Shown here: in pieces, positions 4,427 to 27,378 of the stretch
Layout of the letters: each line of letters opens with the position of its first letter
Numbering within the stretch: position 1 is the stretch's first letter
From: Planctomycetota bacterium
GTDB lineage: Bacteria; Planctomycetota; Phycisphaerae; SM23-33; FEN-1343
Reading direction: 5' to 3'
Length of the DNA stretch: 27,378 bases
Assembly: GCA_012514895.1 (NCBI GenBank)
Contig: JAAYZK010000107.1
Location: 1 to 27,378 of the forward strand
Notes under the pieces: model-generated
Told to the model about the DNA's origin: nothing
Databases searched by the model: none
What the model saw: the letters and a program-made list of their open reading frames with translations, nothing else
Position numbers and translations under genes: made by a program

Positions 4427-4455
4427 GGCTTCGTCCGGCCCCCGAGGCCTGACGC

Positions 4456-4528
4456 GGGGACGTAGCTCAGTTGGGAGAGCGGCTGGTTCGCAATCAGCAG
4501 GTCGAGGGTTCGAATCCCTTCGTCTCCA
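4456..4528 (+). tRNA. tRNA-Ala, anticodon CGC; no CCA encoded.
   Basis: Cloverleaf folded by hand: acceptor GGGGACG/CGTCTCC carrying the G3:U70 alanine identity pair; D-arm GCTCAGTTGGGAGAGC; anticodon stem GCTGG/TCAGC with loop TTCGCAA (anticodon CGC); T-arm GAGGGTTCGAATCCCTT; discriminator A. Confidence 0.9.
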
Positions 4529-4532
4529 GTCT

Positions 4533-4562
4533 TCGTTCGCCGCGGCCGACGATCGCGGCGAA
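4533..4562. terminator. Perfect 10-11-bp hairpin (GTTCGCCGCG ... CGCGGCGAAC) between the tRNA-Ala 3' end and the stop of the convergent minus-strand gene.
   Basis: Inverted repeat CGTTCGCCGCG-gccgacgat-CGCGGCGAACG read from the sequence. Weak T-run. Confidence 0.45.
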
Positions 4563-4566
4563 CGTT

Positions 4567-5128: not shown

Positions 5129-5434
5129 CGGTCGTCTCCCCGGCCGTTCCGTTCCACGGGTGCCCCCGTCCCGTAACTCAGACGCCCAACCCAGCGCGCG
5201 GTTCCCCCGGCGATGCCTTGCCCCTCCTCATGCCCGATCACCCGACATCATTGTGCCTTCTTCGCTCCGATGCAATCCGTGGCTCTCGGTTCCCCGGCGC
5301 CGGGAACAGCGCTGGAGCGGTGGGAAAGCAGGGGAAGTGGACGTGCCGACGATCACGTCGAAGCTTTCGCGCGTCCCAGACGGACGGATGACGGGGATCG
5401 CTGCCGCCCGTTCCGGCCTCAGATCAGCCCCCCC

Positions 5435-5956
5435 CTACCCCAGCGGCACGGCCAGCCCCGCCGACGCCAGGAGGTCCAGCACTGGCGGCAGAGAGACGGT
5501 GCTACGCTTCATGCGATGGCGGAGGCGGCGCGCGGGGAGGGGCGAGACGGGCGGGGAAGCGGCACAGAGGAGGTCGACGGCCTGCACGATCACGATCGTC
5601 GCCCCGGGGTAGGTCAGGCTGCCCGAGGCCGTCCGCGGGAAGCTCTGCTGCCAGTCGGGTCGGGCCACTTCGGAGACGACATGGTCGCCGAACGGCAGGC
5701 CGTCTAGGACGTAGCCGCCGCTGGTGTCAGTGGTTGTGAATCTCTCGCCCTCGCCGCTGTCCCATCGGCCGTCCCCGTCGCCGTCGGTCCAGTCCAGCCG
5801 ATCGTTTTCGTTGGCGTCGAGGTAGATGGTCCAGCCCGCCAGCGCCGGTTCTCCGGGATCGCGCAATCCGTCATTGTCGAGGTCATCCCACTTGACGCCA
5901 TGGATCACCACGAACGCAGACCTCCAGGAGCCTTTGCACGCGCTTGTCGGCCCCAC
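5435..5956 (-). CDS. Orphan SdrD-B-like / Cna-B-type (carboxypeptidase-regulatory-like) beta-sandwich domain ORF with no signal peptide; possibly a gene remnant.
   Basis: Motif GVKWDDLDNDGLRDPGEPALAGWTIYLD ... TTTDTSGGYVLDGLPFGDHVVSEVARPDWQQSFP matches the SdrD B-like repeat pattern. The GTG start at 5956 is only 24 bp from the divergent mutL start. No upstream ATG before an in-frame stop. Confidence 0.4.
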   Translation of the reverse strand: MGPTSACKGSWRSAFVVIHGVKWDDLDNDGLRDPGEPALAGWTIYLDANENDRLDWTDGDGDGRWDSGEGERFTTTDTSGGYVLDGLPFGDHVVSEVARPDWQQSFPRTASGSLTYPGATIVIVQAVDLLCAASPPVSPLPARRLRHRMKRSTVSLPPVLDLLASAGLAVPLG

Positions 5957-5979
5957 CCCCCGCGTGGTACAACGGCCGC

Positions 5980-7845
5980 ATGGCTTCCATCCGCGTCCTG
6001 CCCGTGCACATGGTCAACAAGATCGCCGCCGGCGAGGTGATCGAGCGCCCGGCGAGCGTCGTGAAGGAGCTGCTGGAGAACGCCCTGGACGCGGGGGCCG
6101 GGCGGATCGACGTGACGGTGGAGCAGGGCGGCAAGCAGCTCATCCGGGTCAGCGACGACGGCGGCGGGATGGGGCCGGAGGACCTGGCCAAGGCGTTCGT
6201 GCCCCACGCCACCAGCAAGCTGCCGGACGAGGAGGCGCTGTTCCACATCGCGACGCTGGGCTTCCGCGGGGAGGCCCTGGCGTCGATCGCGGCGATCAGC
6301 CATGCGAGCATCCGCACCCGCACGGCCGCCGAGGACGGGGGGCACGAGGTGGCCGCCGGCGGGGAGGTTCTCGGCGAGGTGCGGCCGTGTGCGGCGCCGG
6401 TGGGCACGACGGTGGAGGTGCGGGACCTGTTCTTCAACACCCCGGCCCGCCGGAAGTTCCTGCGGTCGGATTCGACGGAACTGGGTCACATCGCCGAGGC
6501 CCTGATCCGCGCGGCGCTGCCCCGTCGCGACGTGGCGTTCACGCTGACACACAATGGGCGTCGGGTGATGGATGTTCCGCCGGCCCGCACGTTGCAGCAG
6601 CGGGTGGCGGACCTGTTCGACCCGGAGCTGGCCGAGCCGCTCATCGCGGTGGAGCCATCCGACGGGGACGTGCGGATCTCCGGGCTGGTGGCCCCGCCGT
6701 CGGCGGCGCGGGCGGCGGCGAAGTGGCAGTACCTGTTCCTCAACGGCCGCTACATCCGCGACCGCTTCTGCCAGCACGCCCTGAGGGAGGCCTACCGCGG
6801 GCTGATCGACCCGCAGCGCCACCCGGTGGCGATCCTGTTCATCGCCCTGGACCCGGCGGCCGTGGACGTCAACGTCCACCCCACCAAGATCGAGGTCCGC
6901 TTCCGCGACGGCCAGAGCGTTCACTCGCACCTGCTGGCGGCGGTCCGCGAGACCCTCCAGCGTGCGGAGTTGCGGCCGCGAATGAGTTTGCCGCCCGAGG
7001 CCCCCGAGCCGCCGGACGACGCGCGGCGTCAGAGCCTGCGGGAGGCCCTGGCGGACTTCTTTGCCGCCCAGCCGGCCCCGCAGCCGCACCTGCATTTCAG
7101 CGAGCGGCGCGACCGCCCGTCGGGCGAGCCGTTCGGCGGCGATCGCGCCCCCCTCCCGCCGATGGCGCGGCTCTCGCCGCGTCCGCCAGCCGACGACGGC
7201 GCCGCCCCGCCGCTGCGTGCGGCCGAGCCGTCCGACCCGCCGGCCGGCCACGCGCCCGAGCCGGCGCGGGCGCCGGCGCGGCGGGTGATGCAGGTGCACA
7301 ACACCTACATCGTCGTCGCCGACGCCGACGGGCTGCGGATCATCGACCAGCACGCCCTGCATGAGCGGGTGCTCTACAACCAGCTCCTCGAGCGGATCAC
7401 CGCCGGGCCGCTGGCGGGCCAGGGGCTGCTGCTGCCGGCGACGCTGCCGGTGACGCCCGCGCGCAAGGCCCTGCTGGAGACGCACGCGGACCTGCTGGCC
7501 AGGCTGGGGATCGAGGTGAGCGATTTCGGCCCGGCGAGCGTCGCCGTCCAGCGGTTCCCCGCTTTCCTGGACCGGGCCGACCCCGCCGCCTTCGTGGCCG
7601 ACCTGCTGGACCTGCTGGACGGCGGCGACGCCGCCCTGGACCCTGAGCACCTGCTGCACAGCGTCCTGGACATGATGGCCTGCAAGGCCGCCGTCAAGGC
7701 CGGCGATCCCCTCGGCGACGAGGAGATCGCCCACCTGCTGGACGCCGCCGACGCCGCCGACAAGTCCACCGCCTGCCCGCACGGGCGGCCCACCCAGATC
7801 CGCCTGACGCTGCGGGACCTGGAGAAGCAGTTCAGGCGCGGGTAG
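5980..7845 (+). CDS. mutL: DNA mismatch repair protein MutL, endonuclease-type, with a Pro/Ala-rich interdomain linker. Start taken at MASIRVLP.
   Basis: N-terminal GHKL ATPase motifs (KELLENALDAGA, DDGGGM). C-terminal DQHALHERVLYN, ACKAAVKAG and CPHGRP metal-binding/endonuclease motifs. 622 aa. Confidence 0.93.
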   Translation: MASIRVLPVHMVNKIAAGEVIERPASVVKELLENALDAGAGRIDVTVEQGGKQLIRVSDDGGGMGPEDLAKAFVPHATSKLPDEEALFHIATLGFRGEALASIAAISHASIRTRTAAEDGGHEVAAGGEVLGEVRPCAAPVGTTVEVRDLFFNTPARRKFLRSDSTELGHIAEALIRAALPRRDVAFTLTHNGRRVMDVPPARTLQQRVADLFDPELAEPLIAVEPSDGDVRISGLVAPPSAARAAAKWQYLFLNGRYIRDRFCQHALREAYRGLIDPQRHPVAILFIALDPAAVDVNVHPTKIEVRFRDGQSVHSHLLAAVRETLQRAELRPRMSLPPEAPEPPDDARRQSLREALADFFAAQPAPQPHLHFSERRDRPSGEPFGGDRAPLPPMARLSPRPPADDGAAPPLRAAEPSDPPAGHAPEPARAPARRVMQVHNTYIVVADADGLRIIDQHALHERVLYNQLLERITAGPLAGQGLLLPATLPVTPARKALLETHADLLARLGIEVSDFGPASVAVQRFPAFLDRADPAAFVADLLDLLDGGDAALDPEHLLHSVLDMMACKAAVKAGDPLGDEEIAHLLDAADAADKSTACPHGRPTQIRLTLRDLEKQFRRG

Positions 7846-15618: not shown

Positions 15619-16098
15619 TCACCCATGCAGCTTCACGGCCAGCTCGGCCACCATCGCCCCATACTCGCGGCCGTGTCGTGTGGCGCGGTCGTCGGGGACA
15701 TTGATGCCGACGGGCCCGTAGTGGTCGCCGCGGGCGACGCCCTTGACGACCATGCCGTGCACGAGCAGGCAGTTGAGGATGTCCAGGACGCAGGTCTCGT
15801 TGCCGCCGGCGAGGTTGGCCGAGGTGCAGAACGCCCCGCCGACCTTGCCGTCGAGTTTGCCGTGGTAAGCGACGGATTCGTCGATGAGCTTCTTGATCTC
15901 CCAGGCCATCGTCCCGTAGTAGACCGGCGAGCCGATCACGATCGCGTCGTAGCCCATCAGATCGGCGGCCTTGACCTGGGCGATCGGCTTGAAGTCCACC
16001 TCGGCGCCCGCCGTCTCGGCCGCCCCGTCCCGCACCGCCTCGGCCAGCGCCTGCGTGTGCCCGCTCCGCGTGTAGTACGTCACCAGTATCTTCGCCAT
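15619..16098 (-). CDS. Flavodoxin-fold NAD(P)H:quinone oxidoreductase / FMN reductase (WrbA-like), 160 aa. Start at MAKILVTYYTRSGHT (16098). The ORF-track extension to 16272 is rejected because it runs through tRNA-Leu.
   Basis: Flavodoxin-like FMN-binding N-terminus (ILVTYYTRSGHTQALAEAV), GSPVYYG motif. AAGGAA RBS about 14 nt upstream of ATG 16098. Confidence 0.85.
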   Translation of the reverse strand: MAKILVTYYTRSGHTQALAEAVRDGAAETAGAEVDFKPIAQVKAADLMGYDAIVIGSPVYYGTMAWEIKKLIDESVAYHGKLDGKVGGAFCTSANLAGGNETCVLDILNCLLVHGMVVKGVARGDHYGPVGINVPDDRATRHGREYGAMVAELAVKLHG

Positions 16099-16146
16099 GG
16101 GCGTCCCGTTCCTTTCCCGATGTTGTAGTCCGCACGTCCCGGCCAC

Positions 16147-16229
16147 TGGCCCGGGCGGGACTCGAACCCGCACGCCCTTGCGGGCAGGGGATTTTAAATC
16201 CCCAGCGTCTGCCATTCCGCCACCGGGCC
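16147..16229 (-). tRNA. tRNA-Leu, anticodon TAA, with a long variable arm; no CCA encoded.
   Basis: Reverse complement GGCCCGGTGGCGGAATGGCAGACGCTGGGGATTTAAAATCCCCTGCCCGCAAGGGCGTGCGGGTTCGAGTCCCGCCCGGGCCA. Acceptor GGCCCGG/CCGGGCC; anticodon stem GGGGA/TCCCC with loop TTTAAAA (anticodon UAA); long extra arm; T-arm GCGGGTTCGAGTCCCGC. Confidence 0.88.
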
Positions 16230-16244
16230 GGTGGGTGATGTTCC

Positions 16245-16272
16245 ATTCTATCCGCGACCGATGCGGATACAA
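16245..16272 (-). promoter_or_regulatory. Sigma70-like promoter candidate for tRNA-Leu on the minus strand: -35 TTGTAT, 16-nt spacer, -10 TAGAAT, about 15 nt before the tRNA 5' end. It overlaps an ATCCGC-N7-GCGGAT palindrome.
   Basis: Read from the reverse complement of 16245-16272. Confidence 0.4.
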
Positions 16273-16487
16273 CAGGACGCCAGGAGGTTATGAGAATCCG
16301 TCGCGGATTTTCCTTGCCGGATCGCCGGAAGGGTGCTAACGTTACATACGAATACTCCGGATCCGTTCGTCGCCGCCGGGTAAGGCGGAACCACGCGGGC
16401 GGGCCGGACGGTCAGAAAGGCACGGGGCCTTTCGCCGTTGGTGATCCCAGCCGACAGGCTGGGAGCCTAGCAGGAAGGAGTATCGTC

Positions 16488-17222
16488 ATGGGGCTTTTCA
16501 GGCGCATCCACCGTATCACCGTCGGCCGTGTCTCGGCGTTTCTCGATCGCGTGGAGGATCCCGAGATCGTCTTTCCCCAACTGCTTCGCGAGATGGAGCA
16601 GCAACTGCAGCAGGCCACGGGCCAGGAGGCCCGGGCGACCGCGGCGGTCACGCAGGTGGAGGTCAAGATCGACCGCCTCCGCCGCAAGGTCGAGGCCATG
16701 GGCCGCGGGGCCTTCCAGGCGCTCAAGCAGGACCGCGAGGACGTGGCCCGCGAGGCGCTGGGGGCGCAGATCGACACCGAACACGAGATCGAGCGGTTCG
16801 AGGCCAGCCTGGCGTCGCTGAAGGCCTCGCGCAACCTGGCCGAGGCGTCGCGCAAGCAGATCCAGCAGCAGCTCGAGCAGTTGCGCGCCCGCAAGCACGC
16901 CCTCATCACGCGCAGCCGTCTGGCGCGGACCCGCCGGCGGATCCAGCGGAGCCTCAACGGCGCGACGGTCTCCGGCGGCAGCATCCTCGACGCGGTCGCG
17001 CGGATGGAGGAGCACATCGAGTCCATCGAGGCCGAGATGGAGGTCCAGTGCCGCCTGACCGGCGAAGGGGTGCTCAACCCTGCCCTGGAGCTGAGTCTGG
17101 CCGAGCTGGACCAGGCCGGGCAGATCGACGAGCGCCTGGCGGACCTGAAGGTGCGCCTGAAGGGTCCGGGCAAGACCGCCCCGCTGGACCTGGCGCCGCA
17201 GACGGTCCAGTGGGGTCACTAG
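16488..17222 (+). CDS. pspA: PspA/IM30/Vipp1-family (ESCRT-III-like) protein, paralog 1 (244 aa). Start at MGLFRRIHRI (AGGAAGGAG RBS), not the ORF-track start at 16290.
   Basis: N-terminal amphipathic helix plus the conserved MGLFRR...FLDRVEDPE...LREMEQQL block typical of PspA/Vipp1. All-helical heptad-rich sequence; length about 220-250 aa. Confidence 0.88.
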   Translation: MGLFRRIHRITVGRVSAFLDRVEDPEIVFPQLLREMEQQLQQATGQEARATAAVTQVEVKIDRLRRKVEAMGRGAFQALKQDREDVAREALGAQIDTEHEIERFEASLASLKASRNLAEASRKQIQQQLEQLRARKHALITRSRLARTRRRIQRSLNGATVSGGSILDAVARMEEHIESIEAEMEVQCRLTGEGVLNPALELSLAELDQAGQIDERLADLKVRLKGPGKTAPLDLAPQTVQWGH

Positions 17223-17417
17223 GTCCCAATGTGCCCCATCGGCGGCGCCGCACGTGCGGCGCGGGTATCGGGACGATCGCCTTGGCACAGACGGATTGGG
17301 GCAGGCCGGTCGGGCACACGGTGACAGCGGAATGGGAAAGACGGCTTGCACGGCCGGGCGGCGGACGTTACTTTTGTGGCGCCCGGCCGTACGGCAGGCG
17401 GGCACGAGGGTACGACC

Positions 17418-18074
17418 ATGTCCATCCTAGCGCGAATCGGGCGGATCGCCAGGGCCAACATCCGTTGGCTCCTGGAGAAGGCCGAGCCGCCGGAACAGGA
17501 GTTGGCGGCGAAGATCGAGGAGCTGACCGCCGCGGTCGCCGAGTGCAAGGCCGCCGCGGGCACGTACGGGGCGACCTTCCGCCGCCTGGAGGCCGAGGCG
17601 GCCCAGCTTCGCGATCGCCAGGCCGGCCTGCACGAGCAGGCGGAGGCCGCGATCCGTGCCGGCGACGACGCGGCCGGCCGCGGCCTGCTGACGGAGAAGG
17701 TATCCGCCACGCAGCGGCTGGCGCAGCTCCAACCGGGGCTCGACCAGGGCCGCCGGACGCTCGACGAACTGCGGGACAACCTCGGCCGCCTGACCGATCA
17801 GCTCGCCGCGGCCCGCACGAAGCAGGCGGAGCTTCATGCCCGCCAGCGATCGGCGGCGGCCCGCAAGGCCTTCAGCGAGAACGCCGGGGCGGCCGACACG
17901 CTCGGCGGCGACGTGTTCGAACGCATGGACGACGAGGTCCTGCAGCTCGAGGCCGAGGCCGACGTCTGCGAGGACATGACCCGCTCGATGGACCTCGAGC
18001 GGCGGAGCCTGGAGCTCCAGGTCGAGGCGGAACTGGCCGCGATGAAGCAGCGTCTGACCGAGGGACGGCCATGA
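17418..18074 (+). CDS. pspA: PspA/IM30-family (ESCRT-III-like) protein, paralog 2 (218 aa). Start at MSILARIGRI.
   Basis: MSILARIGRIARANIRWLLEKAEPPEQEL matches the PspA N-terminus. Coiled-coil rich. Its stop overlaps the next gene's start (ATGA). Confidence 0.85.
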   Translation: MSILARIGRIARANIRWLLEKAEPPEQELAAKIEELTAAVAECKAAAGTYGATFRRLEAEAAQLRDRQAGLHEQAEAAIRAGDDAAGRGLLTEKVSATQRLAQLQPGLDQGRRTLDELRDNLGRLTDQLAAARTKQAELHARQRSAAARKAFSENAGAADTLGGDVFERMDDEVLQLEAEADVCEDMTRSMDLERRSLELQVEAELAAMKQRLTEGRP

Positions 18075-18784
18075 TCGAATTCCTGCAATTCGCCTTCCTG
18101 CCGGCCACGGCGGTGTTCTCCCTGCTGCTGGGCGTGGTGCTGCTGTACTGGCTGGTGGTGATCGTGGGGCTGCTGGACACGGACTTCCTGAACATCGACC
18201 TCCACACCGACGGGGATCTCGGCGATGTCGGCGACGCCGGGGACGTTGACGTCGATGCCGACGTCGATGTCGGCGAGGCCGGGGACCTGGGCGACGTGTT
18301 CCACGCGATGCTCTCGTTCTTCTACGTCGGCCGGATCCCGGTGACGGTGCTGGTGACGCTGATGGTGTTCAGCCTGTGGATCCTGGCGATGGCGGCCAAC
18401 CACGCCGTCAACCCGACCGGCGGCCTGCTGCTGGGGCTGCCGATCGCCGCGGGCAGTTTCGTCGCCAGCCTGTTCGTGGTGAAGGTGCTGGGATGGCCGT
18501 TCGCCAAGCTGTACCGGGCGATGGACGGCTCGCGCGACGGATTGAAGAACGTCACGGGCAAGCTGTGCGTCCTGCTGACGGCCGTCGGGCCGGGGCGCAC
18601 GGGCCAGGCGCAGGTGGCCACCGCCGGCGCGCCGGCCGTCGTGAACGTGATCGTCGAGGACGGCGTGACGCTGGAGCGCGGCTCGGAGGCGGTCGTCCTG
18701 GAATACCGCAAGGCGTCCCACGTGTACGTCGTGGCGCCGGTGGACCTGAACGCCCCGGCCAGGCCCGTCCAGGGCGCCGGCTGA
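18071..18784 (+). CDS. NfeD-like (YuaF-type) membrane protein: 3 TM helices plus a C-terminal OB-fold beta-barrel domain, with an unusual acidic (D-V/D-G)n repeat loop between TM1 and TM2. Translationally coupled to pspA paralog 2 (ATGA overlap).
   Basis: Only the last 237 aa of the 578-aa track ORF are real; the upstream part overlaps pspA-1 and pspA-2 out of frame. TM segments FLPATAVFSLLLGVVLLYWLVVIVGLL, IPVTVLVTLMVFSLWILAMAA and LLLGLPIAAGSFVASLFVV. C-terminal GKLCVLLTAVGPGRTGQAQVATAGAPAVVNVIVEDGVTLERGSEAVVLE fits the NfeD OB-fold pattern. Sits directly upstream of a flotillin gene, as yuaF-floT does in Bacillus. Confidence 0.68.
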   Translation: MIEFLQFAFLPATAVFSLLLGVVLLYWLVVIVGLLDTDFLNIDLHTDGDLGDVGDAGDVDVDADVDVGEAGDLGDVFHAMLSFFYVGRIPVTVLVTLMVFSLWILAMAANHAVNPTGGLLLGLPIAAGSFVASLFVVKVLGWPFAKLYRAMDGSRDGLKNVTGKLCVLLTAVGPGRTGQAQVATAGAPAVVNVIVEDGVTLERGSEAVVLEYRKASHVYVVAPVDLNAPARPVQGAG

Positions 18785-18888
18785 CAGGCGGAGACGTCCC
18801 GCACCCGCGGCTGGGGACGGGTGCGATCGAGGAATGAACGACCGGCCCCCGCGGGGGCCGCTTACAGGAGACAGAGCTGATCAGTGTC

Positions 18889-20904
18889 TTGCTTGCCGAT
18901 GCGATCACCCAAGGGATGCTCATCGTCGCCGGGATCGGGGTCTTCATCCTCCTGGTGGCCGTCTATGTGATCATCAGGTGTTTTCACAAGGTCAGCCAGG
19001 GCGAGGCGCTCATCCGCAACGGCGTGGGCGGCACGAAGGTGACGTTCAGCGGGCTGGTGGTCTGGCCGATCATCCACCGCGCCGAGTACATGGACATCTC
19101 GGTCAAGCGGATCGCCATCGACCGCCGGGGCGACACCGGGCTGATCTGCCGGGACAACCTCCGCGCGGACATCCAGGTGGCGTTCTTCGTCCGCGTCAAC
19201 CCCACCGTCGCCGACGTTACTGCCGTCGCCCAGTCGCTGGGGGTCAAGCGGGCCAGCGACGAGAAGGCCCTGTACGACCTGTTCGACTCGAAGTTCTCCG
19301 AGGCCCTCAAGACCGCCGGCAAGCGGTTCGACTTCGCCGAGCTGTACGTCTCGCGGGACAAGTTCAAGGAGGAGATCCTCCAGGTCATCGGGCGCGACCT
19401 GAACGGCTACGTCCTGGAAGACGCCGCCATCGACTACCTCGAGCAGACCGACAAGAACCTGCTGAATCCCAACAACATCCTGGACGCCGAGGGCATCAAG
19501 AAGATCACCGTCCTGACCGCCGAGCAGTTCGAGCTGGCCAACGCCCGCGAGCGCGAGAAGGACAAGACGATCACCAAGCAGAATGTCGAGGCCCAGGAGG
19601 CGATCCTCGAGCTCAACAAGCAGCTCGCCGAGGCCCAGGCCAAGCAGAAGCGCGAGGTCGAGTCGGTCACGGCCCGCGAGGAGGCCGAGGCCAAGCGCGT
19701 GATCGCCGAGGAGCGCGAGAAGGCCGAGAAGGCGCGCATCAGCGCCGACGAGCAGATCGCGGTGGCCGAGGAGAACAAGCAGCGCCAGGTCATCGTCGCC
19801 GCCCGCAACAAGGAACGGACTGACGGGGTCGAGACCGAACGGGTCCAGCGCGACCGGCAGTTGGAGAAGACCGAGCGCGAGCGCCTCGTCCGCCTGGCCG
19901 AACTGGAGCGCGACAAGGTGGTCGAGACGGAAAACCGCGAGCTGCAGAACGTCATCCGCGAGCGTGTGACGGTCGAGAAGTCCGTGGCGGTCGAGGAAGA
20001 GAAGATCAAGGATACCCGCGAATTCGCCGGGGCCGACCGTTCCAAGCGGGTGCAGATCACCAAGGCCGAAGAGCAGGCCGAGCAGGCCCTGGTCAAGGAC
20101 ATCAAGCAGGCCGAAGCCTCCAAGCGGGCCGCCGAGCAGTACGCCGCCCAGCAGCTCATCGAGGCCGAGGCGAACGAGAAGGCCTCGATCAAGAACGCCG
20201 AGGCCACCAAGATCCTGGCGGCCGCATCGGTGAAGGAGCACGCGGTCACCGGCACCGCCGAGGCCGAGGTGATGGAAGCCAAGGCTGTCGCCACCGAGAA
20301 GCAGGGCACCGCCGAGGCGGTCGTGCTGCAGCGGAAGTACTCGGCCGAGGCGCAGGGCATCACCGAGAAGGCCGACGCCATGAAGAAGTTCCACGACGCC
20401 GGCAAGGAACACGAGGAGTTCAAGCTCAAGCTCAACAAGGACCGCGACGTCGACCTCGCCGCCATCGAGGCCAACCGCCTCATCGCCGCCGAGCAGGCCA
20501 GGCTCGTCGCCGAGGGCCTGCGATCGGCCAAGATCGACATCGTCGGCGGGGAGAACGACTTCTTCCAGAAGCTCGTCGGCGCCATCGGCAACGGCAAGGC
20601 GGTCGACCGGATGGTCGGCGGCTCGGACGTCCTGACGCAGGTCAAGGACGCCTTCCTCGCCGACGACCCCGAGCAGGCCCGCACGCAGATCCGCCAGTTC
20701 ATCAGCCGCTTCGGCATGACCAGCGACGACCTGAAGAACCTGACGATCTCGGCGCTGCTGGTCAAGCTCATGGGGCAGGCCGACGGCGAGACGAAGAGCG
20801 CCCTCAGTGCCCTGCTGGACAACGTCAGGAAGCTCGGCCTGCACGACGAACCGGCCCACCTGCTCGACCCGGCGGCCCGCATCGACAGGCTGCCCCGCGG
20901 CTGA
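18889..20904 (+). CDS. SPFH/Band-7 flotillin-family protein (FloT/YqiK-like), 671 aa. The start is uncertain: TTG 18889 or ATG 18916.
   Basis: N-terminal membrane hairpin (LIVAGIGVFILLVAVYVII). SPFH domain (GEALIRNGVGG...VWPIIHRAEYMDISVKRIAI...). A long EA-rich coiled-coil region and a flotillin-like C-terminal region. Confidence 0.88.
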   Translation: MLADAITQGMLIVAGIGVFILLVAVYVIIRCFHKVSQGEALIRNGVGGTKVTFSGLVVWPIIHRAEYMDISVKRIAIDRRGDTGLICRDNLRADIQVAFFVRVNPTVADVTAVAQSLGVKRASDEKALYDLFDSKFSEALKTAGKRFDFAELYVSRDKFKEEILQVIGRDLNGYVLEDAAIDYLEQTDKNLLNPNNILDAEGIKKITVLTAEQFELANAREREKDKTITKQNVEAQEAILELNKQLAEAQAKQKREVESVTAREEAEAKRVIAEEREKAEKARISADEQIAVAEENKQRQVIVAARNKERTDGVETERVQRDRQLEKTERERLVRLAELERDKVVETENRELQNVIRERVTVEKSVAVEEEKIKDTREFAGADRSKRVQITKAEEQAEQALVKDIKQAEASKRAAEQYAAQQLIEAEANEKASIKNAEATKILAAASVKEHAVTGTAEAEVMEAKAVATEKQGTAEAVVLQRKYSAEAQGITEKADAMKKFHDAGKEHEEFKLKLNKDRDVDLAAIEANRLIAAEQARLVAEGLRSAKIDIVGGENDFFQKLVGAIGNGKAVDRMVGGSDVLTQVKDAFLADDPEQARTQIRQFISRFGMTSDDLKNLTISALLVKLMGQADGETKSALSALLDNVRKLGLHDEPAHLLDPAARIDRLPRG

Positions 20905-20939
20905 TCGAGGAAGCGCCAGGCACGGAAGCGGCGTTGTCG

Positions 20940-20965
20940 CCCCTGCCCCTCTGAGGGGGCAGGGG
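20940..20965 (+). terminator. Perfect 10-bp GC hairpin (CCCCTGCCCC-tctgag-GGGGCAGGGG) between the flotillin gene and the giant ATPase gene. No U-tract follows, so it may be a partial terminator, an attenuator or an RNA-processing site.
   Basis: Inverted repeat read from the sequence. Confidence 0.35.
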
Positions 20966-21049
20966 TGACCGCCCGACGGCGTCGGACGGCCCTGACGGCC
21001 ACACGCCGCCGCCGGACGATGGGACGGACAGCGAGAATAGAACGCACCT

Positions 21050-24000
21050 ATGGCCGATAACCCGACAACGCAGTCGCAGACCGACAGCCCATCGAGCGAC
21101 ATCCAGCTCGAAGGCGGGACGTACGAGATCATCCGCAACCGCCTCCGCAAGCACGCCGACGACCTGCGAGGCCGCCTCGACAGGCTCAATGAGGCGCGCA
21201 AGGCCGTCTTCGGGGCGATCGAGACGAAGCTGCTCAGCTCCGAGCGGATCACGACCGACAACAACTGCATCCCGCGGGACATGATCACCGTCGGCGAGCG
21301 GTTCCTGTTCGGCTACAACGTCTTCATCGGCCTGCGCAGCGAAACGCGGCTGGAAGACGTCTTCGCGATGGTCCGCCGCACCGAAGGCCGTTTCGCCGCC
21401 GAGCCGCTCGACGCGATCGCCGACAAGGCGTTCCTGGCCGAATTCCGCAACCTCTACCAGTACTACCGCGGCGCGACTTTCGCGAAGTTCGCGGTGCTCG
21501 GCCCCTGCCTGTACATGGTTTTCCGCGTCGGCCGCGGAGCCGCCGACATCAAGGCGTTCAAGTGGCGCCTGACGGGCGACGGCGGCCTGGAGTACGCCGA
21601 CAGCCGGTCGACGCACGAGTTCGTCTTCCCGCCCCAGCACGAGTTCGCCTGGACGCGGGCCACGCACGACATGCACCGCTCGGGCGCCTGCCCGCACGTG
21701 TCGATCGAGGACCGCCTCTTCGTCGAGACCGTCGGCGGCGACCTGACAATCAAGATCGAGGACAACACCGCCACCGGCGAGGGCGTCTACAGCGAGCCGG
21801 TCGACAACGCCGACCAGACGCTCGACGACGCGGAGATCCACTATGCCGTCGTCGGCAACCTCATCCTGCTGAAGATCCGGCCCTACCAGGAGGAGGCGTA
21901 CCGGCACCTCGTCTTCAACGAGAAGACCCAGGACGTCGTCCGTATCGACTCGATCGCCGACGCCTGCGTCCTCCTGCCCGACGGGCACGGGCTGATCTTC
22001 CCCAAGGGCTACTACCTCCAGACCGGCCAGCAGAAGCTCTTCAACAACGACATGGAGGGGATGGTCTTCGAGAAGCGCCTGGCCAGCCCCAACGGCGAAG
22101 ACCACCTCTACGTCTTCTACAACCCCGACAGCGGCCAGTACGTCCTGCTGAGCTACAACGTCATCACGCAGGAGGTCGCCACCCCCATCGCCTGCGGCGG
22201 CTACTGCCTCTTCGACGACGGCACGCTGATGTACTTCCGCGCCGGCGATGAACCCCAGCGCCACCACGTCATCCAGATCTGGCAGACGCCCTACTGCGCC
22301 GCCGACCGCCTCACCGCGGCGCCGTCCGACACGTACCTGTTCAAGATCGGCAACAGGGAGATCGTCCGCTGCATGGCCGAGTGCGGCGAACTGCTGACGC
22401 TGCTGGCCAAGGAGGACTCCTACGCCAACCTCTACGTCGACCTCGCCCGGCGTGCAGAGGACATCCGCGATGCGTACTTCTGGCTGGGCAGCGCCGAGGC
22501 ATACGATCTCGCCGAACCGCTCGGGCAGATCCACGCCGCTGCCGCCTCGGCGATCGAGGAATACGAGAAGGTCGTCCGCACCCGCCAGGAGACCGCACGC
22601 CAAATCGCGGCCGTCGACAAGCGGGTCGGCGAACTGCTGAACCGCTCGAAGCGCGACCCGCTGAACGACGTCGACGCGTACGTCGCCCTGCTGGCCGACT
22701 TGCGGGCCGTGCGGGGCGAAGTGGTCACGTTGCGGGAACTGCGGTACGTCGACGCCGCGAAGGTCGAGGCCCTCGATCAGCAGGTGGCCGCGCGGACCGA
22801 CGAGCTGTCGGCCGGTTGTGTCGAGTTTCTCCTGCAGGAAGACAGCCTGCGGCCCTACCACGACCGCGTCGAGGCCCTGGACGCGGAGATCCCGCAGGCC
22901 GCAACGGCCGCGGCGGCGCGGGAGGTGGCCCAGGCCGTCGCGCAGACGGGCCGCGAGCTGGAGATGCTCACGGAGATCGTCTCGAACCTCAGGATCGACG
23001 ACGCCACGAAGACCACCGCGATCATCGACGGGATCTCGCTGGTCTACCAGCGGCTCAACCAGGTCAAGAGCAGCCTGCGGAACCGCCTGGACGAGCTGGG
23101 GCGCGCCGAAGGCCAGGCGGAATTCGCCTCGCAGACCCGCCTGCTGGACCAGGCGGCGGCGAACTACCTGGACGTGTGCGACGCGCCCGGGAAATGCGAC
23201 GACTACCTCGCCCGCCTGATGGCCCAGGCCGAGACGCTCGAAGCCCGTTTCGCCGACTTCGACGAGTTCATCCTGGCCCTCACCGCCAAGCGGGAGGAGC
23301 TCTACAACGCCTTCGAGGGCCGCAAGGTCCAGCTCGTCGAGCAGCGCAACCGCCGCGCGACGGCCCTGATGACGTCGGCCGAGCGGATCCTCAAGGGGAT
23401 CGCCAACCGCGTCGCGGCGATGGACGACCTCAACGCCATCGGCGGGTACTTCGCCGGGGACCTGATGATCGAGCGGCTGCGTGCGACGATCGATCAGCTC
23501 GAGCAGCTCGGCGACACGGTCAAGGCCGAGGACGTCCGCAGCCGCCTCAAGAGCATCCAGCAGGAGACCGTCCGCCAGCTCAAGGACCGTCAGGCGCTGT
23601 ACGAGGACGGCGACAACGTCATCCGTCTGGGCGAGCACCGCTTCGCCGTCAACCGCCAGCCGCTGGAACTGACGATCGTCCACCGCGACGGGGGGCTGTG
23701 GTTCCACCTGGCCGGGACGGGGTTCTTCGAGCCCATCGCCGACGAGGCCGTCGAGTCCTGCCGGGATGTGTGGGGCCTGGAGGTGATCTCCGAGACGCCC
23801 GAGGTCTACCGCGCCGAGTACCTCGCCTGGCAGTTCCTCGCCGCGGCCCGCGCCGACGGGAGCCTGGCCGGCCTGGCAGCCGCCGAACCGGCGGCCCTGC
23901 AGGAGCGGGTCCGCGCCTTCATGGCCGGCCGCTACGCCGAGGGGTACGTCAAGGGCGTCCACGACGCCGACGCCGCGGCCATCGCGGCGGCCCTGGTGCG

Positions 24001-26383
24001 GATGGAGACCACGCTGGGCCTGCTGCGGTACGGCCCGGCCGAGCGGGCGCTGGCGACGACGTTCTGGGGGCTGTGGGACGACGACAGCGACGGACAGAAA
24101 TGGCGGCTCAAGTCCCGCCTGGCGGCGATGGGGCACCTCCGCCGCCTCTTCGACCACGCCGCCGACGGCGGCCGCGACATCGCCGACCTGCGGGGGCGCC
24201 TGGAGCGATTCGCCCAGGCGACGCGGCTGTTCCCCGTCGAGCTGTGCGGCACGGCCGCCGAGTACCTTTTCCACGAACTGCTGGCCGCCAGACCGTTCGC
24301 GGTCTCGCAGCGGGCGGTCCAGTTGAAGGGCGACTTCCTCCGCCACCTGGAGCGGCAGGGTTTCGACGCGACCTTCCGGGCGGCCCTGGACGCCGTCGGC
24401 GCCGAACCCGCCGAGGCCTTCCGCCTGCGACGGGACTGGGTCCGGGCGTACCTGGCCGGCAACGGCCACGCCGACGACGCCGACGAGGTCGCCGCGCTCC
24501 TGGACGACGAGGACGCCGAGCGCACGGTCATCGCCGCCGAGACCACGGTGGAACTGACCGGCCTGGTCGGCTCGCACCCGCTCATCCGGGACGGCCGCTA
24601 CACGCTCGACTACCTGCGATTCGTCGGCCGCCTCGACCGCCACCAGCGGGTCGTCGCCCCGGCGTTCGCCCGATTCCAGGAGGCCAAGAAGGCCCTCACG
24701 GAGCAGTTCGCGCGGCAGTTGCGGCTCAGCGAGTTCGAGCCGCGGGTCCTGACGACGTTCGTCCGCAACCGGCTGATCGACCGGGTATACCTGCCGCTGC
24801 TGGGCGACAACCTGGCCAAGCAGATCGGTTCGGCCGGCGCGCAGAAGCGCACGGACCGCCAGGGGCTGCTGCTGCTGATCAGCCCGCCGGGGTATGGCAA
24901 GACGACGCTGATGGAGTACATCGCCAACCGCCTGGGGCTGATCTTCATGAAGATCAACGGCCCGGCCGTCGGCCACGCCGTCACCAGCCTGGACCCCGAC
25001 GAGGCCCCCAACGCCGCCGGGCGGGCCGAACTGCAGAAGCTCAACCTCGCCTTCGAGATGGGCGACAACGTGATGATCTACCTGGACGACATCCAGCACT
25101 GCAGCCCCGAATTGCTGCAGAAGTTCATCTCGCTGTGCGACGCCCAGCGGCGGGTCGAGGGCGTCTACAAGGGCCGCACCCGCACGTACGACCTGCGGGG
25201 CAAGCGCGTCTGCGTCGTCATGGCCGGCAACCCCTACACCGAGAGCGGGGAGACCTTCCGCATCCCGGACATGCTGGCCAACCGCGCCGACACGTACAAC
25301 ATCGGCGATATCGTCGGCGACAACTACGAGAGCTTCGTCGACAGCTACATCGAGAACTGCCTGACCTCCAACCCCGTCCTCGCCCCGCTCGCCCAGAGAA
25401 GCCAGGCCGACGTGTACAGCGTCATGAAGCTCGCGGGCGGCGCGTCGAGCGACGGGATCGACTTCGAAGGGCAGTACGCGCCCGACGAACTGAACCAGTT
25501 CGTCGCCACGATGAAGAAGCTCTTCGTCGTCCGCGAGGTCCTGCTGAAGGTCAACCAGCAGTACATCCGCTCGGCCGGCCAGGCCGACGAGTACCGCACC
25601 GAGCCGCCCTTCCTGCTGCAGGGCTCGTATCGCAACATGAACCGCATCGCCGCGCGCGTCGTGGCGGTGATGAACGACGCCGAACTGTGGACGCTGATCC
25701 TGGCGGCCTACGAGCAGGACGCCCAGACGCTCACCACCGGCGCCGAAAGCAACCTCCTGAAGTTCAAGGAGATGGTCGGCCGCCTCCGCGATGACGAGAA
25801 GGACCGCTGGGAGGCCATCAAGGCCACCTACCGCCGCCGCCAGTTGCTCGGCGGCAGCGACGAGGACAAGATCACGCAGGTCATCCGCCAGATCAACGCC
25901 CTCTCCGGGGGCCTGGACACCATCGGCGCCGCACTGGGCAAAGGCAGGGAGCAGTTCGCCGGCCTGGCCGGCGGGCTGGAGGGCATCCGCGCCGCCGTCG
26001 AGAAGGCGGCCGCCGCCGGGCGGACGGACGAGGGCCTCGCCGAACGGCTCGACGAAGTCGTCGCCGCCATCCGCCGGCAGGCGGCCCTGACGGCCGAGAC
26101 CGCGCGGCGGCACGAGGCGCTGACGATCAACGACAACGCCCAGACGCTGGTGGCGGTGCTCGAGGAGCAGTTCCAGATGCTCGAAACGTGGCTGGCGCCC
26201 GTCGAGCGCAGCGTCGAAGGGCGGGCGCAGTACATCGGCGACCTGATCGAGCGATTCCAGGCCATGGTTGAGGGGTATACTCAGTTGATCGCCCTGTTGA
26301 ACCGCAAGCGTGCCCTGCCGCAGGCGGGCGAGCCCCGGTTGGGCGATCCGGATGCGGCGCCGGACGAGGATAGGGGCGTGTAG
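21050..26383 (+). CDS. Giant (1777 aa) uncharacterised cytoplasmic protein. N-terminal beta-rich region of about 480 aa, a central coiled-coil/helical region of about 700 aa, and a C-terminal MoxR/AAA_5-like P-loop ATPase module (Walker A ISPPGYGKTT, Walker B-like MIYLDDIQH, sensor-1 VVMAGNPY, Arg in MLANRAD).
   Basis: Single uninterrupted ORF with protein-like composition throughout. No signal peptide or TM segments seen by eye. AAA_5/MoxR-like motif order in residues about 1290-1480. All overlapping long ORFs are Arg/Gly/Pro-rich artefacts. Confidence 0.85.
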   Translation: MADNPTTQSQTDSPSSDIQLEGGTYEIIRNRLRKHADDLRGRLDRLNEARKAVFGAIETKLLSSERITTDNNCIPRDMITVGERFLFGYNVFIGLRSETRLEDVFAMVRRTEGRFAAEPLDAIADKAFLAEFRNLYQYYRGATFAKFAVLGPCLYMVFRVGRGAADIKAFKWRLTGDGGLEYADSRSTHEFVFPPQHEFAWTRATHDMHRSGACPHVSIEDRLFVETVGGDLTIKIEDNTATGEGVYSEPVDNADQTLDDAEIHYAVVGNLILLKIRPYQEEAYRHLVFNEKTQDVVRIDSIADACVLLPDGHGLIFPKGYYLQTGQQKLFNNDMEGMVFEKRLASPNGEDHLYVFYNPDSGQYVLLSYNVITQEVATPIACGGYCLFDDGTLMYFRAGDEPQRHHVIQIWQTPYCAADRLTAAPSDTYLFKIGNREIVRCMAECGELLTLLAKEDSYANLYVDLARRAEDIRDAYFWLGSAEAYDLAEPLGQIHAAAASAIEEYEKVVRTRQETARQIAAVDKRVGELLNRSKRDPLNDVDAYVALLADLRAVRGEVVTLRELRYVDAAKVEALDQQVAARTDELSAGCVEFLLQEDSLRPYHDRVEALDAEIPQAATAAAAREVAQAVAQTGRELEMLTEIVSNLRIDDATKTTAIIDGISLVYQRLNQVKSSLRNRLDELGRAEGQAEFASQTRLLDQAAANYLDVCDAPGKCDDYLARLMAQAETLEARFADFDEFILALTAKREELYNAFEGRKVQLVEQRNRRATALMTSAERILKGIANRVAAMDDLNAIGGYFAGDLMIERLRATIDQLEQLGDTVKAEDVRSRLKSIQQETVRQLKDRQALYEDGDNVIRLGEHRFAVNRQPLELTIVHRDGGLWFHLAGTGFFEPIADEAVESCRDVWGLEVISETPEVYRAEYLAWQFLAAARADGSLAGLAAAEPAALQERVRAFMAGRYAEGYVKGVHDADAAAIAAALVRMETTLGLLRYGPAERALATTFWGLWDDDSDGQKWRLKSRLAAMGHLRRLFDHAADGGRDIADLRGRLERFAQATRLFPVELCGTAAEYLFHELLAARPFAVSQRAVQLKGDFLRHLERQGFDATFRAALDAVGAEPAEAFRLRRDWVRAYLAGNGHADDADEVAALLDDEDAERTVIAAETTVELTGLVGSHPLIRDGRYTLDYLRFVGRLDRHQRVVAPAFARFQEAKKALTEQFARQLRLSEFEPRVLTTFVRNRLIDRVYLPLLGDNLAKQIGSAGAQKRTDRQGLLLLISPPGYGKTTLMEYIANRLGLIFMKINGPAVGHAVTSLDPDEAPNAAGRAELQKLNLAFEMGDNVMIYLDDIQHCSPELLQKFISLCDAQRRVEGVYKGRTRTYDLRGKRVCVVMAGNPYTESGETFRIPDMLANRADTYNIGDIVGDNYESFVDSYIENCLTSNPVLAPLAQRSQADVYSVMKLAGGASSDGIDFEGQYAPDELNQFVATMKKLFVVREVLLKVNQQYIRSAGQADEYRTEPPFLLQGSYRNMNRIAARVVAVMNDAELWTLILAAYEQDAQTLTTGAESNLLKFKEMVGRLRDDEKDRWEAIKATYRRRQLLGGSDEDKITQVIRQINALSGGLDTIGAALGKGREQFAGLAGGLEGIRAAVEKAAAAGRTDEGLAERLDEVVAAIRRQAALTAETARRHEALTINDNAQTLVAVLEEQFQMLETWLAPVERSVEGRAQYIGDLIERFQAMVEGYTQLIALLNRKRALPQAGEPRLGDPDAAPDEDRGV

Positions 26384-26394
26384 AGGATGTACCG

Positions 26395-27063
26395 ATGGGA
26401 CTGATCAGCCGTCTGCGGCGCATTACCCGGGGGCGGATCGAGGCGTTTCTGGACGCCCTGGAAGACCCCGCCCTCATCGTGCCCCAGTTGATCGACGAAC
26501 TCGCCGACCAGGTGAAGGTGGCCGCGAACGCCGAGGCCAAGTCACTGACGGCCGTCAAGGCGCACCAGCGGAAGCTGGATGAAGCGACGGGCCGTGCGCT
26601 GCGGATGCAGCGGGGCGCCGAACTGGCGCTGGCGGCCGGCAAGGAGGATCTCGCCCGCCAGGCGGTGGCTCTCCAGCTTCAGGCCGAGCGCGACCAGCAG
26701 TCGCTGCGCGACATGCTCGCCGGCGCCCAGGCCGCCCACGCTGAAGCCCGCACCGTCCGCCGGCAGCTCGCCGCCGAACTGGAGTCGCTCCGCGCCCGTC
26801 GCGGGGAGCTGATCCGCCGCGCCAAGGCGCCTTCGGGCCCCGCACCCGCCCGCATCGCCTCGGACGGCCGGCGCCTGCTGGACGACGTCGCCCGCATGGA
26901 GGAGAAGGCCGTCGATGCTTCCGACGCCGCCGACGCCGCCGACGAGACCGCAGCACTGATCGAATCGGACCTCGCCTCCCGCCAGGTCGACGACCTCCTC
27001 CGCGACAACGAGGTCCAGCGGAGACTGGAGGACCTCAGGAAGCAGGTGGGCGGGCCCGGGTGA
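26395..27063 (+). CDS. pspA: PspA/IM30-family (ESCRT-III-like) protein, paralog 3 (222 aa), 11 bp downstream of the giant ATPase gene.
   Basis: MGLISRLRRITRGRIEAFLDALEDPALIVPQLIDEL matches the PspA/Vipp1 N-terminal block. Coiled-coil rich. A GAGG lies 7 nt upstream of the ATG. Confidence 0.85.
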   Translation: MGLISRLRRITRGRIEAFLDALEDPALIVPQLIDELADQVKVAANAEAKSLTAVKAHQRKLDEATGRALRMQRGAELALAAGKEDLARQAVALQLQAERDQQSLRDMLAGAQAAHAEARTVRRQLAAELESLRARRGELIRRAKAPSGPAPARIASDGRRLLDDVARMEEKAVDASDAADAADETAALIESDLASRQVDDLLRDNEVQRRLEDLRKQVGGPG

Positions 27064-27378
27064 CCGGTTCTATTCGGCGGAACGCCGCTGGATCTCTCCC
27101 CCTCCGAGAGAAACTCGCCCTGAGCCTGTCGAAAAGGCAGGATCGCAGACCGGATGTCCCGGGGCGCAGCGCGAGCGGAGCAGGGCGAGGGCGATTGCCC
27201 GGCAGCGGACGGTTCGCACCGCCCCGTGCCGCAACCTCTCCACCGCCGGGGGAGATCGGCCCGAAGGACCGGGTGGGGGCAGCCTTGGACGAACTACAGC
27301 GGTCGCAGGCGGGCGCGGGCTGGCCGGGCCCTCACGCCCACCCTTCGACTCCGCTCAGAACCGGCGCGGCCTGCGGCC

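Follow-up and report, generated by a model that had tools for sequence, protein, structure and literature searches.

A three-PspA variant of the YqiJ-flotillin-giant ATPase module in a planctomycete

Introduction

Do the ESCRT-III-like proteins of bacteria work with a dedicated ATP-driven motor? This question is raised by a locus on a 27,378-nucleotide stretch of DNA from a Planctomycetota bacterium (contig JAAYZK010000107.1 of assembly GCA_012514895.1; the whole stretch is referred to below as the window). Here, six successive plus-strand genes (16488-27063) encode three PspA/IM30 paralogues, a YqiJ/YuaF-type membrane protein, a long flotillin and a giant protein with an AAA+ ATPase module. 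PspA belongs to the ESCRT-III superfamily, and according to a 2025 review a Vps4-like ATPase appears to be absent in bacteria (PMC7619361). An initial annotation of the locus had started from the same premise, which is in line with the review, and had proposed that the six genes form a new ATP-driven ESCRT-III/flotillin machine for membrane maintenance or remodeling.

We surveyed related loci and characterized the six gene products. A trio consisting of YqiJ, flotillin and the giant ATPase proved to be an invariant core across phyla, while PspA is a recurrent, facultative addition. The locus in the window is probably a lineage-specific, three-PspA version of this widespread module, in which the ATPase would remodel a membrane scaffold; taken by itself, the mechanistic part of this reading stands at about even odds.

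Results

The six genes form a conserved unit

The first gene, pspA-1 (16488-17222; 244 amino acids [aa]), matches the PspA/IM30 family over its full length (PF04012, E = 3.5e-26), and the second, pspA-2 (17418-18074; 218 aa), matches the same family with E = 2.2e-24. They are followed by the genes for a YqiJ/YuaF-type (NfeD-like) membrane protein (18071-18784; 237 aa), a divergent long flotillin of the SPFH2/YqiK-like type (18889-20904; 671 aa), which is assigned via its homologues, and a giant soluble protein (21050-26383; 1777 aa) with DUF3686, DUF7902 and AAA/AAA_5 domains. A third paralogue, pspA-3 (26395-27063; 222 aa; PF04012, E = 4.9e-13), closes the series.

This layout is backed by the listing of open reading frames (ORFs) and by codon-position guanine-plus-cytosine (GC) content; the GC content of the window is 68%. 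The start of the YqiJ-like gene overlaps the stop of pspA-2 in an ATGA, and pspA-3 begins 11 nucleotides (nt) after the giant gene, with an AGGA inside the gap. The coordinates, strand and order that the initial annotation had given for the six genes were therefore borne out, as were both of these junctions at the sequence level. Its gene identities also proved right; for the flotillin, homologues alone supply the name.

The order pspA, pspA, yqiJ, flotillin, giant gene, pspA recurs in seven of the seven close relatives examined (contigs L085 to L091, with giant proteins 59-63% identical to that of the window), and the downstream pspA is also present on L005 and L011, both truncated contigs. 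Because the same six genes occur in the same order in all seven, the arrangement is far beyond chance. The six genes are a conserved evolutionary unit, as had been supposed, and the identity of the locus is near certain.

A YqiJ-flotillin-ATPase trio is conserved across phyla

Hidden Markov models (HMMs) from the window proteins and from proteins of annotated contexts were searched against all six-frame ORFs of 84, later 91, loci. Neighborhoods were counted at the 67 loci where the sequence extends 5 kb or more upstream of the giant gene. In 64 of these (96%), the gene immediately before the giant gene, on the same strand, encodes a flotillin, and a yqiJ gene precedes the flotillin in 58 (87%). 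PspA genes of any kind, on the other hand, occur within 10 kb of the giant gene in only 19 (28%), leaving 72% without one. CesT/YjfI genes are found nearby in 16 of the 67, and more than one PspA gene in none.

Given linkage of 96% and 87% as against 28%, the core of the module is the YqiJ-flotillin-ATPase trio, and PspA is an add-on. Of the candidate neighbors NfeD, SPFH and PspA, the SPFH and NfeD-type genes are thus conserved beside the giant ATPase gene, and PspA is linked to it in a minority of the loci. Nor do the counts support PspA as the main partner of the ATPase: flotillin and YqiJ are linked to it far more often, and a PspA-free subclade nested within the three-PspA clade keeps the trio (see below). 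Homologues of the giant ATPase do nevertheless co-occur with PspA and SPFH genes in the surveyed loci, which keeps the hypothesis of a functional PspA/SPFH link alive.

PspA linkage takes several forms: a CesT/YjfI-PspA pair in Bacteroidota and on a Pseudomonas plasmid, a single upstream PspA in Omnitrophota and Kiritimatiellota, and three paralogues in the window. The gene order in Hymenobacter is Tir chaperone, PspA, DUF1449 (YqiJ), a 722-aa protein and the ATPase, while on the Pseudomonas plasmid pQBR103 it is YjfI, PspA, polyamine-related genes, a small protein, an SPFH protein and the ATPase. Streptomyces (small protein, flotillin, ATPase) and Deinococcus (small protein, flotillin-like protein, ATPase) have no PspA at the locus. 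The loci of Verrucomicrobiota, Clostridia and Desulfobacterota are likewise without PspA, as are those of the other planctomycete clade (Pirellulaceae, Rhodopirellula, Blastopirellula and similar labels).

The pQBR103 locus (L002, 1427-5110) also carries a rhomboid protease and a DUF2491/DUF350/DUF1190/glutathionylspermidine-synthase set between the YjfI-PspA pair and the trio. It unites two PspA contexts that are separate in PMC11237479.

Unbiased clustering of the other neighboring ORFs yielded a single further conserved partner, a LexA-like regulator confined to Bacteroidota. No other wide partner emerged from this clustering; the remaining clusters were a small verrucomicrobial ORF resembling a helix-turn-helix (HTH) protein, a generic sulfatase, an ABC ATPase and an SDR protein. 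In 15 Bacteroidota loci (for example L001 2580-3365, minus strand; also L008, L024, L034, L036, L042, L047, L048, L060, L064, L066, L067 and others), the gene for this LexA-family regulator (HTH plus S24 protease) lies upstream of the CesT-PspA-YqiJ-flotillin-ATPase operon and is divergently transcribed. The regulator may make the Bacteroidota operon damage- or stress-inducible, and the "DNA repair" label borne by the giant protein family might go back to it.

A few giant genes have quite different surroundings. In L022 the giant gene is without flotillin and YqiJ and stands beside genes for a STAND/NACHT-like NTPase and a TPR protein (4327-7020), and in L046, also without the two partners, its neighbor is a gene resembling Uma2 endonucleases (5909-6505). 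The copies of L022 and L009 make up a Desulfobacterales subclade of orphan giant ATPases.

The three PspA paralogues are ancient and position-specific

In a neighbor-joining tree of PspA proteins, the three positions in the operon correspond to three clades, and the CesT-linked PspAs of Bacteroidota form a separate clade. Orthologues of pspA-1 occupy the same position in L085, L086 and L088-L091 and fall into one clade; orthologues of pspA-3 lie directly downstream of the giant gene in L005, L011 and L085-L091 and form a clade of their own. Orthologue N-termini of the form MSI..R..RIA.AN fixed the ATG start of pspA-2 at 17418. The mutual identity of the window paralogues is only 20-33% (20-27% for pspA-2 against the other two), and the duplications are therefore old, with all three copies retained. 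A scan for transmembrane segments found none in the pspA-1 product.

All of the three-PspA loci fall into one Phycisphaerae-type clade of the giant-protein tree. Nested within this clade is a subclade (L006, L025 and L075) that keeps yqiJ, flotillin and the ATPase gene. No PspA gene was found there in the approximately 5.5-7 kb upstream at each locus or, for L075 alone, in the 10 kb downstream; the contigs of L006 and L025 end at or within the giant gene. PspA thus appears to have been lost once at this locus within the three-PspA clade.

Two side observations concern these genes. In two Sedimentisphaerales-type loci, L088 (1121-3328) and L089 (1134-3412), the three-PspA operon is immediately preceded by genes for a MASE3-HisKA_3 sensor kinase and a GerE-type response regulator, a candidate regulatory pair with domains like those of LiaS/LiaR; the window has no such genes. 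The C-terminal helix of pspA-3 (26981-27040, DNEVQRRLEDLRK) and that of pspA-1 (17114-17150, QIDERLADLK) share the pattern phi-x-x-R-L-x-x-L-K/R, which is conserved within both orthologue groups and resembles MIM1, a motif that binds the MIT domains of Vps4. The pattern is presumably a general feature of PspA C-termini, and the ATPase showed no MIT domain; for these two reasons we dropped it as a sign of a Vps4-like interaction.

The giant protein combines a beta-propeller with a MoxR-like AAA+ module

Pfam searches with the giant protein matched DUF3686 at aa 38-477 (E = 1.9e-187), DUF7902 at aa 598-681 (E = 3.4e-25) and AAA/AAA_5 at aa 1274-1397. AlphaFold2 models were made of aa 1-600 and aa 1181-1777. 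The first (predicted local distance difference test score [pLDDT] 87.3) consists of a long helix (aa 22-54), a beta-rich domain at aa 60-412, the core of DUF3686 (window 21227-22285), and helices at aa 429-594. The beta-rich domain has about 26 strands arranged in fours. Among the matches listed in a Foldseek search of the PDB, most were beta-propellers, with E-values of 2.7e-7 to 1e-4 and low template modeling scores; they included the WD-repeat domain of DCAF1, the Vps18 beta-propeller, prolyl oligopeptidases, CyRPA and thiocyanate dehydrogenase. From the strand groups of four and the prevalence of propellers among these matches, the modeled domain appears to be a divergent beta-propeller, in agreement with the published description of such proteins.

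A long helical/coiled-coil region that includes DUF7902 follows (aa ~429-1230, window 22334-24739); both of its ends were modeled, and many of its residues are invariant across phyla. The C-terminal model (pLDDT 80.7, and above 90 in the ATPase core) shows helices at aa 1188-1259, the AAA+ module (aa ~1240-1600, window 24767-25849) and low-confidence coiled coils. This last part, a tail of long helices (aa ~1607-1777, window 25868-26383; pLDDT 40-80), is poorly conserved and is shorter or absent in the homologues from Bacteroidota and Clostridia, which are about 1620-1680 aa long; tblastn matches to these shorter homologues stop near aa 1630.

The closest structural neighbors of the AAA+ module are two MoxR-type proteins, NorQ (score 15.8) and CbbQ (15.7), ahead of Midasin (12.8), Dynein (11-12) and Vps4 (11.0, rank 27). 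Together with the AAA_5 match, these comparisons of the model uphold the earlier MoxR/AAA_5-type assignment, and the module is best classed as MoxR-like. Its Walker A motif (PPGYGKTT, aa 1279-1286), the Walker B aspartate pair D1346 and D1347 (YLDDIQH; window 25085-25090), a candidate sensor-1 residue (N1394) and an arginine (R1412) are all invariant in 12 sequences from five phyla. Since these residues are conserved, the giant protein is probably an active motor of the remodeling clade. MoxR-clade AAA+ proteins such as CbbQ (which acts on Rubisco), NorQ and midasin are known to remodel protein complexes. The transmembrane scan found no segment in the giant protein, and its Pfam matches included no MIT, VWA, nuclease, helicase or DNA-binding domain.

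The family is large. More than 6993 database proteins match at E < 1e-10, often under the names "DNA repair ATPase" or "MoxR-like ATPase", and at least 585 stretches in a one-genome-per-species collection encode a relative. The N-terminal domain alone accounts for 764 clusters at 50% identity, with full-length members of 1600-2000 aa, and 263 clusters at 50% identity reach E < 1e-30; identity between phyla is about 40% over 1600 aa. A tblastn search of plasmids recovered 13 full-length relatives (38-51% identical across 90% of the length) from Hymenobacter, Streptomyces, Nonomuraea, Pseudomonas fluorescens (pQBR103), Deinococcus, Proteus, Halomonas, Photobacterium and Vibrio, hosts that span Bacteroidota, Actinomycetota, Gammaproteobacteria and Deinococcota. 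Branches of the giant-protein tree correspond imperfectly to phyla: Verrucomicrobiota, for instance, fall into two separate groups, and Clostridia are nested near Bacteroidota. This suggests transfer.

Sequence matches to VCP and RuvB in the PDB span only about 40-50 residues at the P-loop. As they are limited to these surroundings, the two names carry no weight and we rejected them as identities for the protein. The label "DNA repair ATPase" is misleading for this family.

The membrane partners are a YqiJ-type protein and a divergent flotillin

The product of 18071-18784 scores 22.8 bits against YqiJ_N (PF21001), where the cutoff is 23, and 8 of its 11 orthologues match YqiJ_N while one of the 11 matches the NfeD C-terminal domain. 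It has about three hydrophobic segments in the transmembrane scan and a C-terminal beta-rich domain; a PDB search with the YqiJ profile matched no NfeD structure. Between hydrophobic segments 1 and 2 lies a strongly acidic, Asp-rich loop (aa 41-75, window 18191-18295, DGDLGDVGDAGDVDVDADVDVGEAGDLGD). The loop varies in length, is acidic in planctomycete and Hymenobacter orthologues and nearly absent in those of Pseudomonas and Deinococcus, and might bind cations.

The flotillin gene starts with TTG, with an alternative ATG at 18916. Its product has an N-terminal transmembrane segment (the only one in the scan), an SPFH region, an E/A/K-rich coiled-coil middle and a C-terminal domain. Direct sequence searches with the 671-aa protein itself returned no Pfam, NCBIfam or PDB match. 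Its relatives, however, carry the names flotillin, YqiK or SPFH, 3 of 17 homologues match Band_7 (up to 9e-11), and a profile of the family matches the SPFH protein QmcA (8z5g, E = 0.0046). As the support comes from homologues, the name flotillin is right by transitive homology only.

In two loci an extra short Band_7 protein (184-189 aa) is encoded between yqiJ and the long flotillin (L091 5331-5885 and L008 6987-7538). These short proteins match the N-terminal part of the flotillin HMM (E = 2e-56 and 8e-48, respectively), and the L091 protein has a Pfam Band_7 match on record. They form a bridge by which the N-terminus of the long flotillin can be recognized as an SPFH domain.

Relation to known systems

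Operons that combine CesT/Tir-PspA, YqiJ/YuaF, a Band-7/flotillin protein and a beta-propeller/coiled-coil/AAA-ATPase protein have been described computationally (Ravi, Anantharaman, Aravind, Gennaro et al. 2024; PMC11237479, section 19), with ANH61663.1 of Dokdonia donghaensis as an example in the supplement. The idea that the window holds a new system can therefore not be maintained as such. The same study reports that shortened operons without PspA are more widely distributed, and our survey counts agree and add numbers.

The window shares with the published operon a multi-transmembrane YqiJ/YuaF-type protein, a long flotillin and a giant ATPase in the same order, with PspA in the operon. 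Its giant protein has the beta-propeller, the coiled coil and the C-terminal AAA+ module and is 46-53% identical to Bacteroidota proteins of that operon type; the Band-7/flotillin component is present by homology only. The surveyed Bacteroidota loci reproduce the published example, including the divergent HTH-plus-protease regulator. In contrast, HMMs from the Hymenobacter CesT/Tir and pQBR103 YjfI proteins, which found 15 and 1 loci elsewhere, detected neither gene in the window or in L085-L091. Because this chaperone gene is absent, we regard the locus as a variant and not as the published form. It also differs in the number of PspA paralogues (three, encoded by two genes ahead of the ATPase gene and one behind it, against a single PspA), in the placement of these PspAs in clades apart from the CesT-linked PspA, in the longer C-terminal tail of the giant protein, and in its host, a Phycisphaerae-type member of the Planctomycetota, a phylum nowhere mentioned in PMC11237479. 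What is new here is the three-PspA, CesT-free variant, which is kept in all seven close relatives examined.

Similarities to ESCRT-III/Vps4 (CdvB/CdvC) are the presence of several ESCRT-III-superfamily paralogues (three PF04012 proteins) beside an AAA+ ATPase gene, the cytoplasmic membrane face as the presumed site of action and the maintenance of the paralogues as distinct orthologue groups. Unlike Vps4, however, the window ATPase is MoxR-like and not of the classical clade, begins with a propeller, has no detected MIT domain and is about four times larger, and its constant genomic partner is flotillin and not an ESCRT-III homologue. Since the ATPase clade and the N-terminal domain differ, the locus does not belong to ESCRT-III/Vps4, and the likeness would be one of functional analogy and not of shared motor ancestry. 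In PMC11237479, a Snf7/VPS4 comparison is drawn for another set of PspA-linked AAA+ ATPases (section 18), and the AAA+ protein of the operon discussed here is counted among the chaperone-like partners of PspA (sections 19-20).

The arrangement of a YqiJ/YuaF-type gene directly upstream of, and co-directional with, a long flotillin gene is that of Escherichia coli YqiK-YqiJ and Bacillus subtilis FloT/YuaG-YuaF, the flotillin-NfeD (SPFH2) family defined by Hinderhofer et al. 2009 (PMC2636767). The window flotillin also has the N-terminal anchor and EA-rich coiled coil of these proteins, although it is too divergent for the Pfam Band_7 and Flot models, precedes a giant ATPase gene and is flanked by PspA genes. 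The E. coli and B. subtilis operons, to our knowledge, have neither a giant ATPase nor PspA genes. A PspA gene does share an operon with an SPFH gene and small membrane partners in B. subtilis pspA-ydjGHI; there, however, YdjI is a short SPFH protein, YdjG and YdjH are unrelated to YqiJ, PspA is single and no AAA+ ATPase is present. The SPFH protein YdjI has been shown experimentally to recruit PspA to the membrane (PMC8581546).

Like the MoxR remodelers of the CbbQ-CbbO, NorQ-NorD and RavA-ViaA pairs, the window AAA+ has its nearest fold in the MoxR/CbbQ/NorQ group and intact nucleotide-binding motifs. It differs from them as a single module ending a 1777-aa multidomain protein instead of a stand-alone ATPase of about 300 aa, and in its Walker B motif, DD; midasin, by comparison, is a six-module ring. 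No VWA/MIDAS partner was matched among the window proteins or in the conserved neighbor clusters, and the locus is for this reason not a canonical MoxR system. In HflK/C-FtsH, an SPFH oligomer is coupled to an AAA+ machine, which makes it an analogy only: FtsH, a classical AAA+ protease, is anchored in the membrane and the SPFH domains of HflK/C are periplasmic, whereas the window ATPase is soluble and without a protease domain and the body of the flotillin is predicted to be cytoplasmic. Finally, the window proteins include no match to the sigma-54 activator PspF, PspB or PspC of the classical Psp system.

Genomic context of the operon

A flavodoxin-like gene (15619-16095, minus strand) is divergent from pspA-1, and the intergenic region between them (16096-16487) is presumed to contain the promoter. 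The other genes of the window are ordinary chromosomal ones, encoding an NrpR-like regulator, SerA, a class-V aminotransferase, MutL, an S41 peptidase, IlvC, a GH3 glycosidase and an aldo-keto reductase. These genes and the divergent flavodoxin-like gene give the cluster a clean upstream boundary; downstream, the contig ends 315 nt past pspA-3. A consensus scan of 15900-27378 found no sigma-70-type promoters, and terminators in the same region were at or below shuffle expectation, both scans being uninformative for this organism.

The first gene of the window (8-736, plus strand), probably cut by the contig start, encodes a protein with a strong match to the NrpR regulatory domain (PF01995, E = 1.6e-75). 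The NrpR family is known mainly as a nitrogen repressor of methanogenic archaea and is hence unexpected in a planctomycete contig.

Discussion

Our data indicate that flotillin and YqiJ, rather than PspA, are likely the primary partners of the giant ATPase. A cytoplasmic motor acting on a membrane scaffold would fit the predicted topologies, as the giant protein has no transmembrane segment, the flotillin has one and YqiJ has about three. In the mechanism that we favor, flotillin and YqiJ would assemble into an oligomeric SPFH scaffold at the cytoplasmic side of the inner membrane. SPFH proteins form large domes or cages, as in the human flotillin 44-mer (PMC13000311). The giant protein would oligomerize through a MoxR-like AAA+ ring, dock on the scaffold with its propeller and coiled-coil parts and spend ATP to remodel, load or release scaffold-associated proteins. 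In the three-PspA lineage, the PspA paralogues may be drawn to the flotillin platform, by analogy with YdjI and PspA in B. subtilis, and could serve as membrane-sealing effectors whose assembly state is perhaps under ATPase control. Which clients the ATPase serves, and in what order the components act, we infer from these features. Control of PspA assembly by the ATPase is possible in this clade, and an ATP-driven ESCRT-III/flotillin machine, as first proposed, is a reasonable hypothesis.

Several points weigh against a module of this kind with PspA as an accessory. The surveyed loci are the best-scoring 80 of at least 585 and lean to Planctomycetota, Bacteroidota and Verrucomicrobiota. "Facultative" refers to the linkage of PspA at the sampled loci and not to function. 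At three loci the giant gene has no flotillin nearby and its neighbors are unrelated. The flotillin assignment depends on the transitive homology described above, and the Walker B motif reads DD, invariant in the 12 sequences compared, where DE is the usual form. A literature search for DUF3686, PF12458, or "DNA repair ATPase" together with flotillin found nothing.

The best-surviving alternative is that the giant AAA+ protein is a dedicated, Vps4-like motor for assembly or disassembly of a three-PspA heteropolymer, with flotillin and YqiJ as a mere membrane anchor. In its favor, the PspA trio is held in fixed positions in every close relative examined, only 11 nt separate the ATPase gene from pspA-3, linkage of PspA to the trio recurs in differing forms in several phyla, and the question of a bacterial motor is still open (PMC7619361). 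The Snf7/VPS4 comparison made for other PspA-linked AAA+ proteins and the grouping of this AAA+ with chaperone-like partners (PMC11237479) point the same way, as would the MIM1-like helix in pspA-1 and pspA-3 were it not probably a general PspA feature. On the other hand, 72% of the sampled loci are free of PspA within 10 kb, as opposed to the 96% that carry flotillin, and a nested subclade dropped all of its PspA genes and retained the trio. The AAA+ module of the giant protein is of the MoxR and not the classical clade, and the N-terminus is a predicted beta-propeller, with no MIT domain detected. We therefore consider this explanation unlikely, if a serious contender. A more specific proposal, in which the three PspAs co-assemble into a heteromeric ESCRT-III-like polymer on the flotillin/YqiJ platform and the giant MoxR-type ATPase drives its turnover, is somewhat more doubtful still.

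It could also be speculated that the module, carried on mobile DNA, serves at the membrane in anti-phage defense or abortive infection. Homologues are found on large plasmids (13 plasmid records), the giant-protein tree crosses phylum boundaries, and orphan copies lie beside a STAND NTPase and TPR pair or a Uma2 endonuclease-like gene. However, PADLOC gave only coiled-coil noise for two of the PspA paralogues, nothing for the third and P-loop-only IetA matches, and on this result we rejected a defense role. The giant protein is moreover unusually conserved for a defense gene (homologues from different phyla share about 40% identity across 1600 aa; only 263 clusters at 50% identity with E < 1e-30), the window context consists of housekeeping genes, and no nuclease or toxin effector domain was found. 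Such a function is very improbable.

HTH plus S24 repressors also govern non-SOS regulons. The least probable explanation, that the giant protein truly is a DNA repair ATPase whose membrane-protein neighbors are incidental or tether DNA processing to the membrane, has for it the NCBI and Pfam family names ("DNA repair ATPase" or "ATPase involved in DNA repair"), the conserved LexA-family regulator beside the Bacteroidota operons and weak RuvB_N-type matches at the Walker A region, but it can be set aside, as the RuvB/VCP matches cover just the P-loop surroundings, the nearest structures are the MoxR chaperones NorQ and CbbQ, no nuclease, helicase or DNA-binding domain was detected in the protein, its invariant neighbors are membrane proteins, no literature was found to back the name, and a regulator of this type need not signal DNA repair.

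The reading that we prefer, a three-PspA version of a scaffold-remodeling YqiJ-flotillin-ATPase module, bears on two questions. We know of no ATPase that works with a bacterial flotillin; with flotillin and YqiJ as its partners, the giant family may account for the assembly or clearance of flotillin scaffolds in bacteria. The family is large and highly conserved, as the counts above indicate, and misleadingly named, and the locus offers an entry to its function. Carriers of the module in culture include Pseudomonas fluorescens SBW25 with pQBR103, Proteus mirabilis, Vibrio campbellii, Hymenobacter, Dokdonia and Streptomyces.

The module is also a clear genomic candidate for an ATP-driven partner of bacterial ESCRT-III-like proteins, and the three-PspA variant is the strongest case of tight PspA-ATPase linkage. 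The locus is thus an entry point to the question, open according to PMC7619361, of whether bacterial ESCRT-III-like proteins work with an ATP motor. If an ATPase-driven polymer of three PspAs proved to be real, it would represent a counterpart of ESCRT-III/Vps4 that bacteria evolved independently, with a motor from a different AAA+ clade.

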